From Naegleria gruberi (lineage: Eukaryota): 64,000 bases of DNA. This document shows positions 15,091-58,239 of this stretch, one piece after another. Numbering within the stretch: the stretch's first letter is position 1; every line of letters starts with the position of its first letter. Both the position numbers and the translations under genes were made by a program. The stretch lies in the NCBI GenBank assembly GCA_000004985.1, contig GG738884.1. One strand, given 5' to 3'. The notes beneath the pieces are model-generated. The model saw nothing but the letters and a program-made list of their open reading frames with translations, did not search any database and had not been told where the DNA came from.

Positions 15091-18000
15091 TTACTCTACA
15101 ACATCTTGCCACATTTCCTCAATTTCATAAATGGCTTCAAGAATTTCTGAAAAGTCAGGTCTGATATTTTCATCAGTTGCCCAACATGTCTTCATCAATT
15201 CTGTGTACTTATCAACAAGTGGGATCAATAGATTGGAACTGGTCAATTCTACTCTATTCTTTTGCTTATTACAGAATAAATACCATTCACATTTTAGGGT
15301 ATCTTCGTCTTGCTCGAATTCGGACGAGTCGTTTTGAATTTGGAGTGCATTGTTTCTTACTGAGCTTATTTCCCATGGAATGACTGGTCTTCTGCCCTGA
15401 ATAACTTCACTACCAATAGAGAAGATACTCATCATATCAGAGCCTATAAATGTAGTATGACCTGATGTGTCAGAGCTTGTCAAATCAGAAATTTGTGAAC
15501 CACTATTAGATTCAGTACTAATTCCAATACTAGACCTTTCCTTCTTGGTGAGGGGAGATTTTGGAAGTTCTGTATATGGTTGTACCATGAAGAATAATTC
15601 ATACATGAGGATGGCAAAACTGAAAACATCACATTTGACTGTATATCTTCTAGATTGCTTGAGGATTTCTGGACTTGTGTATTGGATAGTACCATAACAA
15701 ACACCAGTCATTGTGAGTGAAGACAATGGCTTTGACACACCAAAGTCACAAACCTTACAATTGCCAGCTTCATCTATGAGAACATTTTGAGGTTTCTATT
15801 ACAAAAAATTAATTAAGAGTATTCAATTTGAATACTTACCAAATCTCTGTGAATGATAGGTGGTTTAGTGTTATGTAAATAAATCAAAGCTCTACAAATA
15901 TCCTTCAATATTTCAAGTTTTCTTCCAAATGTAATAATTTCATTTCTAGCCTTCCTCTTCTTAGGATAGATGATCTTGTCCAAACTTCCACCTTTTACAA
16001 ACTCAGTTACGATATACTTGTTATCCTCGTCCACACTGACACCAATAAGTAAGACAACATTAGGGTGTCTCAATCCTGTTAAAATATTAGCTTCATGTTC
16101 AAAGTTTTCATCATCATCACAACCAAATTGGTTAGATTTGATTCTCTTGACAGCAACTTCAGTACCTTTCCAAGAAGCTCTGAAAATAACACCTCCAGCA
16201 CCTTCTGAAACTCTCTCCTTGAATTCCAAATCTTCAATTGGAATCAAATGGGCAGATGTATTTGTAGAGTCCATTGAAGAATAGAAACTTGATTTAGTGT
16301 TGTGCTCGAGAAGTTTAGATAACATTTCATCTTCTGCCTTCTTCTTTCTCTTGAGAGTTTGTGATTGTCTTCTAAACATGAAAGCAAATATACCCAATGG
16401 TATAGCAACCACAAGAATTATCAAAATACCAGCTACAATTAGAATTGGAACAATAACACAAGCAGCATATGAAGTGTTTCCATTCGTGAATGTTGGTAAA
16501 CCCAGTGGACAAGAAGTACATTTGACAGCACCTTTCAAATCAGAGTAAGTAGAAAATGGACAAATTTCACATTGTAAATCTCCATTAAGGAAGAAACCCT
16601 CCTTACAGTATACGCAAATAGATAAATTCTTAGAACCAGCACTTTCTGTAGTCATACCTGTTGGACAAGAATAACAAACAGGAGAACCAGTAGAGTTTGA
16701 ATAAGTTCCAATTGGGCACAATTTACAATCTCCTTCTGATTCGGATCCACTATTTGGTTGGAATGTTCCAGCAACACAAGCTGTACATTCCTTTTGACCC
16801 ATAGTATTAGCATAAGTACCAGGAAGGCAAGGAACACAACTGGTAGAGTTGGATGAACCCTCATTTGGATTAAAGGTTCCAAGTGTGCATTTTGAGCAAA
16901 TAGAGGCACCCTCCTTTTCAGAGTATGATCCAGCTGAGCAAGGTTTACAATCTGATGCTTGATAACTGTTCATATTAGAGTTTGCTGTACCTGCTGCACA
17001 CTTGGTACAATGAGGAGCTCCAGGATTTGCGCTAAAAGTACCAGTCGAGCATGGCAAACATGACATTGAACTATTTTGACCAAATAGTGGTTGATAGGTA
17101 CCTTTTTCACAGAGTGTACATTGATATTGTTGCATTAGATCTGCGTATTGACCTGTAGGGCAAGGAAGACATTTCTTTAAACCAGTCACAGGTGCAAATG
17201 TACCAATTGGACAAGCTGTACAATTTAAAACTTGTCCAGTAGTATTTGAAAAAGATCCTTTTGGACATGAGTCGCACAATCTCTGTCCAATTGTTTTTCC
17301 AAAAGTACCAGGTTCACATGGAATACATGAAGAAGGATAAATAGAACCCATTACAGGATTGTGGGTTGAAATAGGACATGGAATACATGAAGAAGCTCCT
17401 ACATAAGGATTGTATTGTCCATAAGGACAAGGTGTACAGGTTTCATTTGAGAAGGCAGAAAGCTCATCACTTGCTGTACCTGCAGGACAATGATAACATT
17501 GTTCATCCTTAAACATAATTGTATAAATTGTTGGTAAACTTGGAAGGGTTCTATTGTAGAATGAAACAACATAGGCCTTATTTGATTCGCTGTATGCCGA
17601 ATAAATAGCTCCATAAACTGTATCTTTGGATTTTTCAATAATAGTTTCCTTATACCATCTTTCTCTATTTCTAACACAATACTTGGAAGCGAAAAATCTA
17701 GATCTGACTTCATTGGGATTACCAACATTACTACCACCTGGTCGAATAACTCCAGATACGTAGGTGAAACCACTTGAATCTACATCAAATGTTGTATTGT
17801 AAACGTTTTGGAAAGTAAGCATTGATTGCAAGAAACCATTTGAATCAGTTTTAGCAAGGAAAAAATTTCTATCAAAAGAGCTGGTTACATTTTGCCCTTG
17901 GAATGATACATAACTACCAAACTCGCCAGAAAAGAGAATATTTCTATTTGGATCAAACTTGAGAAGACTGCTGAACTCTGAAGTGAAGAATTGGTCAGAA

Positions 18001-21000
18001 GTGATCATATTGTCATCCTTACTACTGTTAGTAGTAATTGTTTGCATCCATAATATCTTTCTGTTACCGGTTGTTTGGTCTAGTGGACCAAACTTGAGTA
18101 AATAGTAAGAGAGTACTTCTGAATTGTGATTGATTATTTGCAAATCCTCAAACCTGACTGCACTCTTGAAAACACCAGAAATTACAACATTTCCTACAGA
18201 ATCTGGTAATACAGAGAACCCTTTAGACATACCCTCACTAGTGGCTATCCACAAACAAACCATATTAAAAGGCTCAATTTCAAATACTATAGTGTTAACA
18301 AGAGAAGAAGAAGTTGTAGTACAGCTAGGATCAATTTCAACGCTTCCTCTATATCCTCCAGTGATTAAAATTGATAAATCTTCAGTTATTCTAATAGATT
18401 CAGGGATTACGTTGATAAACTCCTTTCTTACTTGAATTCTTCCTTCATTGATTTTTAACATTACACCTGTGAATTGTGTAGCTCCATAATTTTGTTTGGC
18501 TTTCCATCCAACAACCCAAGTGTTATCAAACCTGTCAGTAGCAACACTGGTTACAGTAATTCCATCTGTAGAATTGGTTTGATCTGAGAGAGTAGCAAAG
18601 TAGTTGAAGCTTTCAGCATCCAAAACCGATGAAAACCTGACAGAAATTCCATTCAAAGGACCTCTTGGACTTGTAGAAATACCAAAGCCTGTATATGAAA
18701 TACTACCATGTCTACCAAAAGAAATGTAGAGTGAAGGAACTGTTCCATATAAAAAGATTGGACTCACAATTTTGTCTGCATCTGTTTGATTTACCAAATA
18801 CGAGCCGACTCCACAACTAGTAAATCCTTGCACAATTTCAGAGCCACAATTTTCACCAGTATAGTTAGTATAACACTTGCAAACATCTTTAGCAACACAA
18901 GCTCCGTGAGAAGCACATACAGACATATTGGTTGCGTCAACCCCAAAGCAATTAGCAATTTCGCAATTCTTTCCTGTGTAATTCTCATTACAAATACAAT
19001 AGTCAGGAAAAGCACATCGTCCATTGCCTGAACAGGTCTGCACATCATTTTGTGGAATGTCAAAGCATACAGGATACTGACATGACTCACCAGCAAATGT
19101 TCCCAAGCTACAAGAACAAGAATTTGGTCTAACACATTTTCCTCTTCCTGTACATGCTCTTGTATCATCTTGAGAGTAAAATCCACATAAAGGAATAGTA
19201 CAAAGTATATCACTACACTTATTACAACCCTCTGTAACAGTTGAAACTAGTGTATTAATGAAGCCTACAGGGCTAACAACAGTACTTGGATCTCCAATTA
19301 CTTGCACATTACCACTGAAAGAAGCAGACACATAGAACTGTCTTGGAGTCCTTGCATCGGTCGATAACATTAATGGTTGAGTGGCTATCAAGGATCCCTT
19401 AATGAAAGAGTGAATGTAGGTTTGTTTGAGTTGTACATTTGTACTATCGCCAGTGTTAACAAATTTTTGGGCAAAGAGAGTGATTGAGCTTTGAACACCA
19501 AAGGTTATAAAACTATCCCAATCAATATTAGAGTAGACATTACCATTCTTTCCGATAACTACAAGCTCATTGTAATTGTTTGCTCGAATTTTAACACCAA
19601 AATATGGATTATCATATTGAACTAGATGAGCTATAAGACTTCCATCGTCTATTGATACTTGGGAAATGATACTACTAAAATTCGAAAGTTGAACATTAAT
19701 TAGCATAACATCACCCAAAAATGTTATATCTTCCACAGATTTTGCTCCATCAATTTCAATAATTTGTGACCAAATTTCTTGATCGGTAGTCTTGAAAGCA
19801 TCGTAGCAAACAATATAAACTTGGTGAACTGTTCCAACATCTGTCAACATGGTTTCCATGGTACCTGCAATGAAAACTCTGTCCTTCTTAGGAGATAAGG
19901 TAATCAAATGAGCTGAAGAAGAACCATAAAGATAGGATGGTAAAGGATCTACTTTAGTGGCATAAATTACCTTTCCAGTTGTGTTGGAGAGGGCACCATA
20001 GAATACAGAGCTTTGTTTTCTAGATTCTAAAACAACTCCAACATCCACAAAAGTTAATTTGGCATTAAATACTCCTGTAAAATATAGTGTTCCATCTTGG
20101 CCGTAAGTAACATCCTTAACTATGTTCATAGCCACACTACCCATAATTGTATTTGGCATAATAATGGCAGGTGGAGGGAAAATGGGTTGAGGGAGCTCAG
20201 CTTCCTTATTAATTGCTGGTTGATCCAAAATATTATCCAGATCAAATTGGAATAACATTAGTGTTGATTTAGATTCGTATTGGGTTTTTGCAATTTCCAA
20301 ATATTGAGGCAATTCACCTCCCAATGCTACTCTCCTTTTCCCATTATGATCAAGCTTAGCCATCGTGTATAAATAGTATTTGGTGTTTCTTGTAACTATT
20401 CCAACTTTGAAAAGTCTAAACATGTTACTATTTTCATAAATTACCCAATACCCTTGAGTAACACCAGCTGAAATCTCTGCTACGACCTCATCAGCCACTG
20501 CCACATCAGACCCTGAAAAGTGCCCGATTGTATAAATTCGATTCTCATCACTCACCAATTTTCTTTGATCTACCTGCAAAGTAGACAGGAAATCAAATCT
20601 GGCTCCTTTCTCTTCAGGCGATGCACCTCGAATAAAACTCATTCTAGTTGATGTAATAGTTCTGTTTCTAATAATCATTGGATGAAGAAAATCTTTACTG
20701 CAGTCAACCACATGGTTTGGATTTTCGCTATCTGGATCCAGAGATACATACGAATTATAGAATAATCTCTTGTCAATGATACCATTCTCGGTTGATGCAC
20801 AACTCGCAAGACTAAATAAATAATTATGTAATATAAGTATTATACATAGAACAATAATGATTTTTCCAATTCCTCGATTATTATTATTATTATGATTTAC
20901 AACATTTAACCCTTCCAATTTTGATAATCCAATAATATTTGTTGTTCTTTCTCGATTATGATAATGATTGAACCAGGTTGATGAAAATTTATTTTTCTTC

Positions 21001-21134
21001 TTATCCTGTTGTTCTTGTTCTTGTTGTATCTGATGATGGTGCGATATTGATGATGAACAAGGAGTTTCATCATCAGAAGAGAAAAGTAACAGCGGTGATA
21101 GTAGTGTTTCGCCTCCAAGTAGAAGCAGAGACAT
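15091..21134 (-). CDS. Receptor-like protein kinase (TKL-type) with large Cys-rich ectodomain; exons complement(15840..21134, 15091..15795), intron 15796..15839
   Basis: About 16 CxxCPxGT(F/Y) repeats (GCC2/GCC3 / ephrin-receptor-like Cys-rich) plus EGF/laminin-type repeats (CTGRGKCVRPNSCSCSLGTFAGESCQ...). TM helix VIVPILIVAGILIILVVAIPLGIFAFMF. Kinase motifs: GAGGVIFRASW, VAVK, HRDL|KPQN split by a 44-nt GTAAGT..AG intron, DFG (CDFGVS), SPE. Long insert in the kinase C-lobe. About 1999 aa in total. Confidence 0.8.
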
Positions 21135-27859: not shown

Positions 27860-28148
27860 ATGAATTACTGCTTCCGATTCCAAGTAGAGTGCACACCCAA
27901 CAGTTACGTTGTTCAATTATTTTTTTTGTTGAATTATTTAATAATTTTGGCGGGAAGAGAAAGTAATCTTTTATACACAATATATTACCAATCATTACAA
28001 ACTGCAAGTATTAATTATTAAGCATACACCATTTGAATTGATTTAACAACTTCGTATGACACTTCCTTATATAGTAACCCATAAAAACTAATTAGCTCGT
28101 ACGCACAAATTGACCGCAGGATATCCAAAACAACTCATATACCTCCTG

Positions 28149-28156
28149 TATAAAAA
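28149..28156 (+). promoter_or_regulatory. TATA-like element upstream of SDR gene
   Basis: tataaaaa lies about 72 bp upstream of the ATG at 28228, in an unusually C-rich leader. Confidence 0.3.
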
Positions 28157-28227
28157 CCACACAACTATCCCCAATTCAAGAGTTCAATAACAAAAAAACA
28201 ATTCAATCTTCAAACTAAATCATAAAC

Positions 28228-28965
28228 ATGATCAAGACAGTTCTTATTACTGGTGCTACTACTGGAATTGGTAAGGCAACTGCTGTTGCATTTGCAAAGA
28301 AGGGGTTCAATCTGGTTGTAACTGGAAGAAAGATTGAAAAGGAGCAAGAATTGGTTGAGCAAGTTAAGAAAGCAGGTGCTAATGATGTTTCTTTCTTTCA
28401 ACTCGATGTCGCTCAAGAAACTGCTTTCGAACAAGTTGTTAAGAAAGTTGTGGAAAAGTATGGAAAGTTGGACGTGCTTGTTAATAATGCAGGCATCTCC
28501 ATTAGCATTGATTTGTTGGCCGACTCCAAAACTGAAGATTTCAAGCAAATGATTGATACAAATGTTTTGGGAGTTTACTATGGAATGAAATATGCCATTC
28601 AAGCCATGTTGCAAACTGAAACCAAAGGAGCAATAGTCAATCTTGCCTCCATTGCAGGACACAATGGTTTGCTCTATACTTCACAATACTGTGCCACTAA
28701 ACATGCAGTGGTTGGATTGACAAAGGGAGCTGCAACTGATTATGCCACTAAGGGAATTGCACCAGGAGCAATTAAGACTGAAATTTTACAAAATGCAATT
28801 GATTGTGGTGCCTATTCTGAGGAGGGCATTGCTGCCATGCATCCAATGAATAGAATGGGAACAGTTGAGGATATTGCTAATGGAATTGTCTTTTTGGCAA
28901 GTGATGACTGTTTGTTCATGACTGGAACTACCTTATTCGTTGATGGAGGATACAATTGCAAATAA
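28228..28965 (+). CDS. Short-chain dehydrogenase/reductase (classical SDR, FabG-like)
   Basis: TGATTGIGKA Rossmann motif, NNAG, catalytic S...YCATKHAV (YxxxK), PGAIKTE. 245 aa, intronless, bacterial-type sequence. Confidence 0.85.
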   Translation: MIKTVLITGATTGIGKATAVAFAKKGFNLVVTGRKIEKEQELVEQVKKAGANDVSFFQLDVAQETAFEQVVKKVVEKYGKLDVLVNNAGISISIDLLADSKTEDFKQMIDTNVLGVYYGMKYAIQAMLQTETKGAIVNLASIAGHNGLLYTSQYCATKHAVVGLTKGAATDYATKGIAPGAIKTEILQNAIDCGAYSEEGIAAMHPMNRMGTVEDIANGIVFLASDDCLFMTGTTLFVDGGYNCK

Positions 28966-29118
28966 TACTTGTTTGATTAATGAGATTTCAATAAACAATG
29001 TTTTTAAGTTGCGAAATCATGGAAAGGTTCTTTCATTAATACCATTTGAACAAACTTTTAACACAAGTTTACAATCATAATAGTTTAAGCAAGCCACAGG
29101 TTGCATTGAAATAGTAGT

Positions 29119-29844
29119 TTACTTTTTACAAATGAAATATTCGAAATTTGTTCCCTTCACTTTTCCTCTTTCAGTAATTTGAAATTTTGATTTTCCAATT
29201 TCCTTATCAGTTTCTCTAACCATCGATGCACCAACCAATGGATAAGTAATCAATGTGACCATTGACAGGAAAACATCAGTCCAGAAATTATAAGTCTTGA
29301 AATGTTCCACAAAGAAAGCAGTTCCACCAGTTTTCAATACTCTATATGCCTCATCAAAGGTCTTTTTCTGATCATCCACACTACACAACACATCAATACT
29401 CAATACAGTGTCAAAAGTCTCATTCTGAAATGGCAAACTCTCACAAGGTGCTTCCATCAATTCAAATTTACTCAAATTATCTTTCATTTCTGTTCTGACC
29501 TTTTCTCTTGCCTTATTGAGCATTCCACTCGATAAATCAATCATGGTAATACTCTCAATCCTATCCATCGGATAGTATTCAATATTGGGACCAGTGCCAA
29601 CGGCAAGGTCCAATACCTTACCCTCAACCATCGGGACAAATCTTGTTCTGCATTTTGAGAGTGTGTTCTTTTCAAGGTACTGCATGATCCAATCATAGAT
29701 CGGAGCAAGAAGATCAAATTTTTGAATGCCAAACCATCCGAGTGGTGAAATCATTTTTTTTAATGTTGTTTTTCTGGTGTGATTCTTTTTTGGACAAATT
29801 TGGAAGATTGACATAAAGAGGCGAATTGCCACTCTGTCAACCAT
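29119..29844 (-). CDS. Class I SAM-dependent methyltransferase (Methyltransf_11-like)
   Basis: Motif I VLDLAVGTGPN, motif post-I SITMIDLS, motif II/III FDTVLSIDVLCSV...LKTGGTAFFVEH. Alternative start is the in-frame aaaaaaaATG at 29754 (MISPLGWF...). Confidence 0.7.
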   Translation of the reverse strand: MVDRVAIRLFMSIFQICPKKNHTRKTTLKKMISPLGWFGIQKFDLLAPIYDWIMQYLEKNTLSKCRTRFVPMVEGKVLDLAVGTGPNIEYYPMDRIESITMIDLSSGMLNKAREKVRTEMKDNLSKFELMEAPCESLPFQNETFDTVLSIDVLCSVDDQKKTFDEAYRVLKTGGTAFFVEHFKTYNFWTDVFLSMVTLITYPLVGASMVRETDKEIGKSKFQITERGKVKGTNFEYFICKK

Positions 29845-29928
29845 GTTTTACCCACTATATTTATTTTAATAGTATTTGTGTAAATTGATTATTGAACTGG
29901 TACAGGCAAAGGATGATTTTAAAAGTTA

Positions 29929-32829
29929 TTATTCAGAAACGTTTATTACAAAAGTGTCACTAATGTCTGCTTCTTCGACATACTTGCTGTCAAGATATTC
30001 ACCATTGGCGTACAATGTACCCATATTGTCGTAATTCTTAGCAAAGATATTACCATCATTGCCAGTTGGAAGAATGAGTTTGTCTCTGTGGAGAGCATTG
30101 TTGAAAGTGAGAATTTGGCGATAGACTGGTCCTTCGTTGGTTTGATAATTTTCGTCCACATTATTCAAAAGAACTGTTTCAGTACCTCCCTCAGTTTTGA
30201 GAATAATTTCTGAAAGACAGCCAATAATTGGCGTATCCTTGCCTGCAATGTGATAGATTGGAGTTGCATGAATAGTTCCCCATGTTGGGATTTCACCATA
30301 TTGATTATAGAAAGTATCGACCATCAAGACAAACTTGGCAATGGCATAATCAGTACAGGTGGAATATCCTTGATTGATACATGCCTGATCATTGTTTCTC
30401 AGCATGGCATCCTTGTAATAGTACCATAAGGCAAGTCTATAGTTAGCAGCTTCGGCTCCTTCCATTTCCTTAGAAGCAAGTGTACCGAAATATCTCAAAA
30501 ATCCTTCAAATAAAGAAGCTTCCTTTGAAGTCTTCTTCATATAACCATCCCAATTAATCAAACTGGTCAACAAGTCAGAGTATTTAGAACCCTTCTTGGC
30601 CATTCCACTTGTCATGTTAACAAACATGAATTTGTAATCTCTATAAACCACGCTGAAAGTATCCAATTGAATATTAATCATATCTTGCATGGTCAATTTA
30701 CTTCCAGTCTCTGCATTTTGCTTCATTAATACTGCAAAAAGTTCTTGAATTCTTTGCTGTCTGTAATCGAAAAAGTAATCAGCACTGACTGTGTATGGAT
30801 ATCCTGGAGGAACAACACGATTATTAGCAGATGAAACATATCCTCTCTTTGGATTGTAAACTTCTGGTGCCTTGTCCACAGGTACATATCCATCATAATC
30901 CCATGTCATTGTATCTCCTCTAACAGCATATCGTCCAGTATGGCCCTCCCTACGCATTGGAATTCTTCCAGAAAGCTTGTAACCAATATTACCATTTACA
31001 TCCATGAAGGCATAGTTGAATACAATAGACTTAATTCCATTCACATAGGTACGGAACTCATTCCAATTCTTACTCAAAATCAATGCGTAGTAATTATTTA
31101 CGCTAGTGTCATTTTCAACTTGAGCAATCCATCTGAGAGCTGGAAGTTCTGTCTTGCTCTCGGATAACACTGGACCAAAGATTGACTCTCTGACCTTGAT
31201 GGTGACTGGATCAGCTCCAGAAATTTTGATTGTTTCACTATAAATAGTGAATGGTTTGGAGACTCCATCGACGAGATAATTATTCTCATTTGATGGATCT
31301 GGTGTCAAAATGTAGAGATCCTGAACATCAGTATATCCCAATGTTACACCCCAACCAATATATTCATTTCTTCCAATACCAATACCAGGAACTCCACTAA
31401 AAGCAGCTCCAGAGAAATTCCTAGGAGCTGAAGAGTCACTAGAAGTTCTATAATTCATTTGAACAAGATAAAATTGATCAGGAGCTTGGAATTCCAAGTG
31501 AGGATCATTGGCCAAATATCCTGTAGGACTATCAGTGAATGCCTTATTGACAGCCCAATTATTAGAGCCAATGGCCTTCTTGGTATTTCTTACCATTTCC
31601 TTGACAGTTTTAGAAATGAAGGAATATCTTCCACTGGAACTTTTACCCAATTTTCTACTTCCAGATTTTGGAATATAGGCACCTGTATTATTTCTGTTTT
31701 GCTTCCACTCCATAGCGAGTTCTTCTTGATGGGTCAAGTTGAGTCCTAAATCCTCACGAGTCACAATGGTGGCTGCATCAAACGGAACTGGTGGATCAAG
31801 GACCTCCATTCTGCTCAATGTAACTCCATACTTTGTCATTGCATTGTATCTTCTTTCTTCATCCAAATAATTCACAGACATGATAAACTCGATATACTTT
31901 ACAACACAGAGAGAATCAAAAATGGACCAAGGTTCAATATCATATCCCAATAGAATGGCTTCTGCAGGAGCTGCATTTCCACTTTGTAAATAAGCATTAA
32001 CACCATCTGTGTAAGCTTGAAGTGCACTCTTGGCTTGATTATTCAACAAGAGCATTTCCTTCTTGGCAGCTCTGGCATAACCAATAAATCTTGACAATTT
32101 ATCATCTTCCAAAGTGGAACTGTCAGCAATTTCACTCAACCTACCCTGGGACACTCTTCTAATAAGATCCATTTGGAAGAGTCTTTCTTGGGCAGTTGCA
32201 AACCCTTGACCAAATATCATGTCTAACTCTTTTTCTCCATCCACATAAATAATTCCATTCACATCTCTCCTTATATTAATTTTTGTGTTTGGTGTTAAAT
32301 AGGAAGGATATGATTTTAAATAAGTGTTTGTTTCCAATACAATTGATTTTACATTGAGTGTGCCACTCTTATTCACAATAGAAGAAAGAGGAATGGCCAT
32401 AAATACTACGTATACAATTAGAAAAACTGCAAACAAAATTGCACTCACAACACAACTCGTTACAAACAAGCAATAAATTGTTCCCTTCACAACACCTCTC
32501 AAAGAGTGAGCTTTCCATATCAAAAACAGTGCAAAAGCAATACACACTCCCATTGATGCACAAGCCACCAATGACAATGTCAAAATTATAGCCAATTCGG
32601 CTCTTTCACACTTTACACATTGTTTAGGAAACACACCGTATAAACTAAATGAAAGTGCCAAGGTAACAATGATGAAGAATATCGACAAGCCAACAGCCGA
32701 AAGTGATATTATAGATGAAGGTGTTTTCAATTGATGATCACTATGTAAATGATCACCAGTGCTAGTAGAATTAGAATTGGACCGTACTTCTCTTGTAGTC
32801 AATCCATCTTCGTGATAATTGGTAGCCAT
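29929..32829 (-). CDS. Penicillin amidase/acylase family (peptidase S45, Ntn-hydrolase) protein with N-terminal multi-TM anchor
   Basis: N-terminal nucleophile motif GSNNWAVN and ANDPHL. Other conserved acylase blocks: YxxPGIGIGRNEYIGWGVT, MDVNGNIGY. Three hydrophobic helices in the first ~170 aa. Intronless, 966 aa. Confidence 0.8.
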   Translation of the reverse strand: MATNYHEDGLTTREVRSNSNSTSTGDHLHSDHQLKTPSSIISLSAVGLSIFFIIVTLALSFSLYGVFPKQCVKCERAELAIILTLSLVACASMGVCIAFALFLIWKAHSLRGVVKGTIYCLFVTSCVVSAILFAVFLIVYVVFMAIPLSSIVNKSGTLNVKSIVLETNTYLKSYPSYLTPNTKINIRRDVNGIIYVDGEKELDMIFGQGFATAQERLFQMDLIRRVSQGRLSEIADSSTLEDDKLSRFIGYARAAKKEMLLLNNQAKSALQAYTDGVNAYLQSGNAAPAEAILLGYDIEPWSIFDSLCVVKYIEFIMSVNYLDEERRYNAMTKYGVTLSRMEVLDPPVPFDAATIVTREDLGLNLTHQEELAMEWKQNRNNTGAYIPKSGSRKLGKSSSGRYSFISKTVKEMVRNTKKAIGSNNWAVNKAFTDSPTGYLANDPHLEFQAPDQFYLVQMNYRTSSDSSAPRNFSGAAFSGVPGIGIGRNEYIGWGVTLGYTDVQDLYILTPDPSNENNYLVDGVSKPFTIYSETIKISGADPVTIKVRESIFGPVLSESKTELPALRWIAQVENDTSVNNYYALILSKNWNEFRTYVNGIKSIVFNYAFMDVNGNIGYKLSGRIPMRREGHTGRYAVRGDTMTWDYDGYVPVDKAPEVYNPKRGYVSSANNRVVPPGYPYTVSADYFFDYRQQRIQELFAVLMKQNAETGSKLTMQDMINIQLDTFSVVYRDYKFMFVNMTSGMAKKGSKYSDLLTSLINWDGYMKKTSKEASLFEGFLRYFGTLASKEMEGAEAANYRLALWYYYKDAMLRNNDQACINQGYSTCTDYAIAKFVLMVDTFYNQYGEIPTWGTIHATPIYHIAGKDTPIIGCLSEIILKTEGGTETVLLNNVDENYQTNEGPVYRQILTFNNALHRDKLILPTGNDGNIFAKNYDNMGTLYANGEYLDSKYVEEADISDTFVINVSE

Positions 32830-58075: not shown

Positions 58076-58239
58076 TAAAGATATTTCCCCTAATTTCGAC
58101 ACAATTGACACGGTAAAAGCAGATTATTAATCTTTCCAACTTGAATCAAAATTCAGAATTGAAAAGATTAATACTCAACAACCAAGATTACAATAGAAAA
58201 AGCGATGAATATTTAATTAAAAAATTATTTTTAAAAAAA

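Follow-up and report, generated by a model that had tools for sequence, protein, structure and literature searches.

Three enzyme genes lie side by side in a 64,000-nt stretch of Naegleria gruberi contig GG738884.1 (assembly GCA_000004985.1), a stretch referred to here as the window and belonging to a scaffold of 363 kb. They encode a short-chain dehydrogenase/reductase (SDR), a methyltransferase, and a protein of the penicillin amidase family. An earlier note on this DNA had suggested that the three could be a small island for detoxification or for the processing of secondary metabolites, or else old horizontal acquisitions, and the open reading frames (ORFs) it described are all found exactly where it placed them: the SDR at 28228..28965 (+ strand, 245 aa), the methyltransferase ORF at 29119..29844 (- strand, 241 aa), and the amidase at 29929..32829 (- strand, 966 aa). 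The corresponding deposited N. gruberi genes are NAEGRDRAFT_70478, NAEGRDRAFT_70479, and NAEGRDRAFT_70480, respectively. Pfam agrees with all three family assignments, matching the SDR to adh_short_C2/adh_short (E 1.9e-56), the methyltransferase to Methyltransf_11 (E 6e-21), and the amidase to Penicil_amidase over the full length of the profile (positions 2-671 of 675; E 1.8e-159). The SDR and amidase ORFs are identical to the deposited proteins, and both genes are therefore single-exon. Only short gaps of 153 bp and approximately 174 bp separate the three genes, the SDR being convergent with the other two, and spacing between genes is equally tight throughout the window. The host is a heterolobosean (Heterolobosea), and the amoebozoan frame in which the genes were first considered does not apply to it.

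The closest relatives of the SDR are found among bacteria. All 119 of the non-self matches listed by BLASTP are bacterial or metagenomic, with identities of 56-68%, and in MAFFT alignments the identity to bacterial relatives reaches 70%. Named relatives among the matches listed include Algoriphagus (68%), Flavobacterium, Bacteroidales, and Synergistaceae, and a scan of one genome per prokaryotic species also recovers the gene in Prevotella and Selenomonadaceae (62-63%). No eukaryotic relative appears among the matches listed by this word-indexed search, and none of the 119 comes from a EukProt- or MMETSP-type eukaryotic source, which the entry of N. gruberi itself does have. The JGI metagenomes contain no copy closer than 68-71%, the matches there being of the 248-aa bacterial form, in a scan by exact peptide patterns that detects close relatives only. 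A scan of the same kind, with the same limit, found no relative in viral contigs, and a virus-mediated route was dropped on that account. In tblastx and blastn comparisons, the window resembles bacterial loci only over 28221..28980, where nucleotide identity is 65-69%, and the leader at 27917..28227 has no similarity to them. As the similarity ends at the borders of the ORF and the identity is at this level, only the SDR ORF appears to be foreign, and its transfer not very recent.

The bacterial genes occupy settings of their own. In the two nearest bacterial genomes a large GAF/sigma-54 activator precedes the SDR gene, and other dehydrogenases lie around it. At these Algoriphagus-type loci (L062 4158-8747 and L064 4387-8747) the SDR is located approximately 150 bp downstream of a GAF and sigma-54-activator protein of 1157-1230 aa, with further SDRs and an aldehyde dehydrogenase nearby, which suggests that the bacterial enzyme serves in regulated catabolism and not in peptide tailoring. 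A second set of loci (L004-L041), from metagenome-assembled genomes (MAGs) of rumen Prevotella and Selenomonadaceae, carries SDRs that are 71% identical between the Bacteroidota and the Firmicutes of the rumen. Many of the Prevotella MAGs have the gene on very short contigs of 2-4 kb. This pattern hints that the gene occurs in repeated or mobile contexts and has moved from one bacterium to another.

By its motifs the N. gruberi protein is a classical SDR. TGATTGIGKA (of the TGxxxGxG type) and VNNAG are both present, in invariant columns, and the catalytic tetrad of N112, S141, Y154, and K158 likewise falls in invariant columns of a 67-sequence alignment. The best solved structure is ElxO (PDB 4qec; E 2.5e-72), which scores 246 bits vs. 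159 bits for the next structure and stands well ahead of generic FabG and glucose dehydrogenase structures. ElxO, encoded in the epilancin 15X cluster of Staphylococcus epidermidis, is an NADPH-dependent reductase that converts the N-terminal pyruvyl group of a lanthipeptide to lactyl (PMC10652874). The two proteins align from end to end and have in common TGxxxGIG, NNAG, and the S-Y-K catalytic residues. They differ in the five-residue beta-strand F, which ElxO has and the reference N. gruberi allele is without. They differ also in genomic setting, as no lanthipeptide genes were seen near the N. gruberi SDR or the closest bacterial SDR loci; the location in a lanthipeptide cluster that marks an ElxO-type pyruvyl reductase is found neither in the window nor at those loci. 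As a member of the ElxO-like family, the enzyme would by homology reduce carbonyl groups with NAD(P)H. A literature search by the SDR gene identifiers found no paper mentioning the gene, and the accession numbers are not present in the pangenome supplements.

A second copy of the locus is available in L115, a 1388-bp environmental contig of N. gruberi type (ENA ERZ929261) that matches window positions 28600-29967 with 98.6% identity. The 3' end of the amidase, the methyltransferase, and the SDR, convergent with both, are arranged on it as in the window; a search for literature on the metagenome project of the contig found no paper. Between the window and L115 the two spacers differ by 13 substitutions in 327 nt, the methyltransferase coding sequence (CDS) by 5 substitutions in 636 nt, with 2 amino-acid changes, and the SDR CDS by a single, synonymous substitution in 372 nt. 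The SDR CDS thus has far fewer changes than the spacers (Fisher p = 5e-4), which indicates that it is under purifying selection. The spacer between amidase and methyltransferase (29755-29928) is the most variable part, with 7 substitutions and 3 indels in 174 nt. L115 also bears on the origin of the SDR sequence itself. Were the gene a bacterial contaminant or an assembly chimera, its very high identity to bacterial proteins and the lack of any other eukaryote among the matches listed would follow directly, but this explanation is almost certainly wrong. The gene is embedded between a gamma-tubulin-complex (GCP) gene and the methyltransferase on the 363-kb scaffold, its flanks are without bacterial similarity, and it has been under purifying selection within the lineage. 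An independent metagenome assembly has the same junctions, and contamination or chimeric assembly is excluded on that basis.

The window and L115 carry different alleles of the SDR. The window gene is without 15 bp, AGAATTAATGCAATT, encoding the residues RINAI, with AATT microhomology at the flanks. The in-frame deletion site lies at 28756..28761 (+ strand), between codons I177 and A178, and the window protein reads TKGIAPGA across it. The missing residues constitute beta-strand F, ahead of the APG motif. This strand (RxNAx) is kept in L115, in ElxO, and in 66/66 bacterial relatives, and the complete central beta-sheet that is expected of an SDR, strand F included, is lacking from the window allele. 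An AlphaFold model of the window protein has a mean predicted local distance difference test (pLDDT) of 72, with values below 50 at residues 142-181, which hold the catalytic Tyr/Lys helix and the deletion site, and at residues 232-245, the C-terminal end. A bacterial control (P0122) modeled from the same 67-sequence alignment has a mean pLDDT of 91 and no residue below 50, and its strand F, residues 175-182, is predicted with high confidence. The window protein differs at 8 of 91 near-invariant columns; three of these fall within the deletion and the others are conservative. On these models, the deletion probably inactivates the enzyme and would have struck an intact, selected gene recently. 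It might mark a single haplotype or be peculiar to the laboratory strain.

With bacterial or metagenomic sources for every one of its listed relatives, the reading of horizontal acquisition stands for the SDR, and the best interpretation is that the N. gruberi lineage took it up from bacteria. Such genes are abundant in the Heterolobosea. Approximately 2.7% of N. gruberi genes are reported as bacterial-like (PMC9928731), and 1253 supported horizontal gene transfers (HGTs) have been described in Acrasis kona (PMC11589745). The SDR conforms to this published pattern, in which bacterivorous amoebae carry metabolic genes that came from bacteria, and differs from it in showing both an intact and a deletion allele.

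Several observations weigh against this reading or against parts of it. A neighbor-joining (NJ) tree puts the N. gruberi SDR beside an Algoriphagus-type clade with a bootstrap of only 13.5%; donor assignment by this tree was abandoned, and the donor is left unnamed. The codon usage of the gene is Naegleria-like, with a third-position GC content (GC3) of 0.32 (0.321) and a codon adaptation of 0.79. The closest bacterial locus has the same composition (GC 0.356, gene GC3 0.337), so that codon usage cannot date the transfer. The lack of an SDR ortholog in other heteroloboseans comes from a word-indexed search, of the kind that missed 46-64%-identical eukaryotic relatives of the amidase which exhaustive HMMER ranked at the top, and an older acquisition followed by later losses in heteroloboseans may have occurred. 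The gene order shared with L115, at 98.6% identity, says nothing about selection for linkage. Finally, the proposed loss of function of the deletion allele derives from structure prediction.

An alternative is that the SDR has long been a eukaryotic or heterolobosean gene, its bacterial appearance being the product of slow evolution and of eukaryotic orthologs that went unseen. The ElxO-like family is strongly conserved, at 63-73% identity across bacterial phyla, and the demonstrable misses of the word-indexed search and the weak bootstrap for the position of the SDR agree with such a history. It is nonetheless unlikely. Some bacterial members resemble the N. gruberi protein (68-70% identity) more than they resemble members from other bacteria (63-68%). 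The metagenome scan returned only the 248-aa bacterial-type copies, and a EukProt- or MMETSP-type source, which N. gruberi's own entry has, is found for 0/119 of the listed non-self matches. The proteomes of N. lovaniensis and Willaertia magna were within the database searched, as the methyltransferase matches demonstrate.

The methyltransferase has a different history. Its ORF does extend over 29119..29844, as first described, but the true CDS is most likely 29119..29754 (- strand). The deposited protein of 211 aa starts at an internal Met of the 241-aa ORF, and the start Met of the N. lovaniensis ortholog aligns with this internal Met. Within 29755..29844 the window and L115 differ by indels of 13 nt and 1 nt, and since such indels separate sequences that are otherwise 98.6% identical, this upstream extension (- strand) is most likely 5' untranslated and not coding. 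Motif I of the class I SAM-dependent enzymes, (D/E)xGxGxG, is present in the form VLDLAVGTGPN. Orthologs occur in N. lovaniensis (63% identity) and W. magna (52%). Identity is 49-61% for three metagenomic proteins and reaches only 35-41% for bacterial matches, over about half of the length. The N. lovaniensis gene has two short introns, with the 5' ends GTACGT and GTAAGT. With heterolobosean orthologs, one of them carrying introns, the suggestion that this gene was horizontally acquired does not survive, and on sequence comparison the methyltransferase is a vertically inherited heterolobosean gene. It falls short of every curated subfamily. The cut-off for UbiE/MenG quinone methyltransferases (TIGR01934) is not reached (70.2 bits vs. 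158.35), and matches to solved structures are weak, the best being phospholipid and phosphoethanolamine N-methyltransferases at approximately E 1e-10.

The penicillin-amidase-family protein was at first taken, from the word-indexed search, to be a gene of N. gruberi only with bacterial relatives at approximately 30% identity, a view overturned by exhaustive HMMER. This search finds two W. magna proteins (46 and 40% identity), an N. lovaniensis protein (38%), and a metagenomic pair (60-64%). Further homologs are a second N. gruberi paralog, one in Balamuthia, and one MMETSP transcript. In an NJ tree of 789 columns and 200 replicates, the window protein groups with the metagenomic protein of locus L068 and the 978-aa W. 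magna protein (bootstrap 100%), and the protein of a second metagenomic locus, L003, groups with that of N. lovaniensis (100%). These five form a clade of their own (100%), which the second W. magna protein joins with a bootstrap of 96%, and the named bacteria stand apart from all others (99%). An exact look-up of the amidase protein in assemblies returned no record.

Both metagenomic loci of this clade, L003 and L068, come from one ENA sample (ERZ27315067) and carry two paralogous long-form amidase genes with a GC content of approximately 0.39. One of the paralogs groups with the window amidase and the other with the 1350-aa paralog of N. lovaniensis, which suggests that the sample contains an unsequenced Naegleria-like amoeba carrying both copies and that the duplication predates the split of Naegleria and Willaertia. 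The L068 gene is 55% identical to the window protein over approximately 1000 aa (tblastn). Directly after NDPHLELQAPDQ, at L068 1596-1634, it has a 39-nt intron of the GT-AG type (GTATGT...TTTTAG), and the N. gruberi gene is without an intron at this place. An in-frame stop in the intron led the gene caller to split the gene into P0259 and P0258.

The amidase has the features of an S45 N-terminal nucleophile (Ntn) hydrolase. Ser422 (in GSNNW; codon at 31564..31566, - strand, with the translation checked), NDPH at 441-444, and ANN at 668-670 are invariant in the alignment. Ser422 aligns to residue 1 of the beta-subunit of solved penicillin G acylases, and is the predicted N-terminal nucleophile. 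H444 and N669/N670, both conserved, are taken here to be the equivalents of beta-His23 and beta-Asn244 of cephalosporin acylase. Ahead of Ser422 lies a variable spacer of approximately 50 residues, which is consistent with self-cleavage into alpha and beta chains. Among solved structures, D-succinylase and the penicillin G acylases come closest. With the bacterial S45 enzymes, namely penicillin G acylase, cephalosporin acylase, and D-succinylase (PDB 7ea4, 7rep, and 1gk9), the window protein has in common the full-length PF01804 domain, the alpha-spacer-beta layout, the beta 1 Ser in GSNNW, the NDPH at beta 20-23, and the conserved ANN. It differs from them in overall identity, which is approximately 30%, and in an N-terminal extension of about 155 residues. 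Within this extension, residues 36-155 (32365..32724, - strand) make up a putative membrane anchor, identified from hydropathy and alignment, with three hydrophobic stretches and a conserved CxKC motif. The anchor and CxKC are common to the window amidase and eukaryote-type relatives, P0002 in the alignment, and are not found in the named bacterial homologs aligned. The equivalog profile for PvdQ (NCBIfam NF051460) gives the amidase 50.8 bits against a cut-off of 950. NCBIfam equivalog cut-offs are reached by none of the three proteins, and no specific substrate is assigned on this basis.

For the amidase, then, acquisition from bacteria is at best ancient, set against a heterolobosean clade, a eukaryote-specific anchor, and an intron in one relative. 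Recent import of the methyltransferase and the amidase is refuted by the terms of the earlier note itself, which named placement within eukaryotic clades and scattered ortholog positions as the outcome that would count against it; both genes have this heterolobosean placement, and their orthologs lie at scattered positions. Penicillin amidases of the same family and from the same group of amoebae have been reported before. A homolog in N. fowleri was found in extracellular vesicles and in a 100-kDa immunogenic band (PMC9312180, PMC7350353), and the gene of W. magna is transcribed at a low level (PMC7285305). These papers differ from the present account in seeing the enzyme as a curiosity related to antibiotic biosynthesis or virulence. 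The N. fowleri proteomics (fragment Q25548, a candidate ortholog of the window gene) would be consistent with an expressed, membrane-associated protein.

The position of relatives elsewhere gives no sign that the three genes travel together. Partner genes are absent within 10 kb, or to the end of the contig, at five loci (L001, L002, L066, L067, and L068) comprising the N. lovaniensis and W. magna methyltransferases, an amidase paralog in N. lovaniensis, the amidase ortholog in W. magna, and one metagenomic amidase. Neither an amidase nor a methyltransferase was found near the bacterial SDR loci, and the three-gene order is repeated only in the 98.6%-identical L115. Within 10 kb on either side of their methyltransferase genes, N. 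lovaniensis and W. magna have no gene in common with the window at approximately 25-35 kb, so that the collinearity expected of a clean insertion of the SDR or the amidase is not found and an empty site cannot be defined. A different part of the window, 58117-64000, is collinear with L001 1-4733 and comprises an aldo-keto-reductase-like gene, a 480-aa gene, and Vps35 (74% identity). This Vps35 block lies 6 kb from the N. lovaniensis methyltransferase, and in N. gruberi approximately 30 kb away and in the opposite orientation, which indicates that the linkage of Vps35 and methyltransferase has been loosely kept and the segment rearranged. At L066 21713-23704, approximately 8 kb from the amidase paralog of N. 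lovaniensis, there is a piggyBac-like DDE_Tnp_1_7 transposase gene.

Composition does not set the three genes apart from their neighbors either, although for the SDR the comparison has little power. Their GC content is within the range of the neighboring genes. GC3 values for the SDR, methyltransferase, and amidase are 0.32, 0.36, and 0.32, vs. 0.23-0.36 across the window, and codon adaptation values are 0.79, 0.70, and 0.73 vs. 0.65-0.79. Intronlessness, which had been offered as an uncommon trait, is real for the three genes in N. gruberi, but it is not distinctive, as several other genes of the window also lack introns. Each of the Atg3, Vps36, NYN, BTB-BACK, and BCAS3 genes, the last of 1457 aa, is contained whole in a single ORF. 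Introns are present in the receptor kinase, GCP, P450, and PARP genes, in which Pfam domains are split across ORFs. The marks of an island, a common foreign origin, conserved co-localization, and deviating composition, are thus all wanting, and the proposal of a detoxification or secondary-metabolite island finds no support in genes with differing histories, an order that is not conserved, and an ordinary composition.

Transfer of a single block of bacterial DNA carrying all three genes is extremely unlikely. The genes are adjacent and all intronless in N. gruberi, and their families are all abundant in bacteria, as such a block would have it. The best bacterial identities are unequal, though, at 68% for the SDR, approximately 35-40% over half of the length for the methyltransferase, and approximately 30% for the amidase. 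Moreover, bacterial similarity stops at the borders of the SDR ORF, the methyltransferase and amidase have orthologs in heteroloboseans, some with introns and at other positions, and the trio occurs in no bacterial locus examined.

The genes could also be a functional module assembled in the N. gruberi lineage around the transferred gene, in which an anchored acylase deacylates a bacterial compound and the methyltransferase and reductase modify the products in small-molecule detoxification or processing. Tight packing, with the gaps of 153 bp and approximately 174 bp, is what such a module might show, as are intact catalytic motifs in all three proteins and the recurrence of the arrangement in L115; ElxO, the closest characterized relative of the SDR, does tailor a peptide antibiotic (PMC10652874). 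The idea is improbable all the same. The order in L115 is uninformative at 98.6% identity, and no locus of the relatives keeps the genes together. Equal spacing is found all over the window, and the SDR is oriented convergently to the methyltransferase and amidase. Bacterial SDR loci have sigma-54 activators and other dehydrogenases in place of acylases and methyltransferases, and the reference SDR allele is probably defective. A more specific version is very improbable; here the newly acquired ElxO-like reductase, beside a native anchored acylase and methyltransferase, would act jointly with them on an acylated metabolite made by bacteria, for instance a lipopeptide, an acyl-homoserine lactone, or a compound resembling a beta-lactam. 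If true, horizontal transfer would have seeded a small metabolic gene cluster in a eukaryote, and the deletion allele would reflect relaxed selection in axenic culture.

It is likely, instead, that the three genes are chance neighbors with three different histories, among which the SDR alone is a bacterial acquisition, and that there is no island. By our own estimate, the adjacency of three enzyme genes in so compact a genome is not beyond chance. In the sequence of events envisaged, the genes would have come to adjoin by chance in the very compact N. gruberi genome and would form no unit. The SDR would have entered the N. gruberi lineage from a bacterium as a single ORF, its closest relatives being Bacteroidota such as Algoriphagus, and would now stand behind a leader of Naegleria type. 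It would have been kept by purifying selection until a microhomology-mediated 15-bp deletion took the core beta-strand F in the reference sequence; this deletion probably cripples the enzyme, and a wild relative of N. gruberi type retains the intact gene. The methyltransferase would be an ordinary heterolobosean class I SAM-dependent enzyme. The amidase would be a heterolobosean Ntn-hydrolase, probably of old bacterial derivation, tethered by its N-terminal multi-pass anchor with the catalytic domain predicted to face the lumen or the outside. It presumably cleaves itself at Ser422 and hydrolyzes an N-acyl amide.

The surroundings of the three genes are those of an ordinary eukaryotic region. 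The GC content of the window is flat at approximately 0.35, and the genes found elsewhere in it are typical of eukaryotes, among them Atg3, Vps36, Vps35, a receptor kinase, a P450, and BCAS3. The upstream neighbor of the SDR is the divergent GCP gene, and the intergenic region between them, 27917..28227, is an A/C-rich, G-poor leader. The description of this leader as unusually C-rich with a TATA-like box holds in part. Its C content of 0.27 over 150 nt is the highest among 15 upstream regions and TATAAAAA is present at 28149..28156, but the leader of the P450 gene, at 0.25, is not far below, and all 15 leaders compared are G-poor. Farther away, at 15091-21134 (- strand), lies a very large receptor-like kinase that combines seven ephrin-receptor-like repeats with EGF/TNFR-like modules. 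A gap of approximately 74 nt, presumably an intron, divides its kinase domain between two ORFs.

The locus has little import beyond annotation, and it adds one well-documented transfer from a bacterium to Naegleria. It also carries two cautions. Adjacency, intronlessness, and membership in a bacterial-type family do not together amount to an HGT island, and word-indexed homology searches may hide eukaryotic orthologs, so that negatives obtained from them, including the absence of the SDR from other eukaryotes, need to be treated with care. As a case of transfer the SDR is useful in that an environmental contig confirms its integration and reveals both intact and deletion alleles. For the amidases, the penicillin-amidase-family proteins of Naegleria and Willaertia are an old, membrane-anchored eukaryotic clade and not recent bacterial imports.

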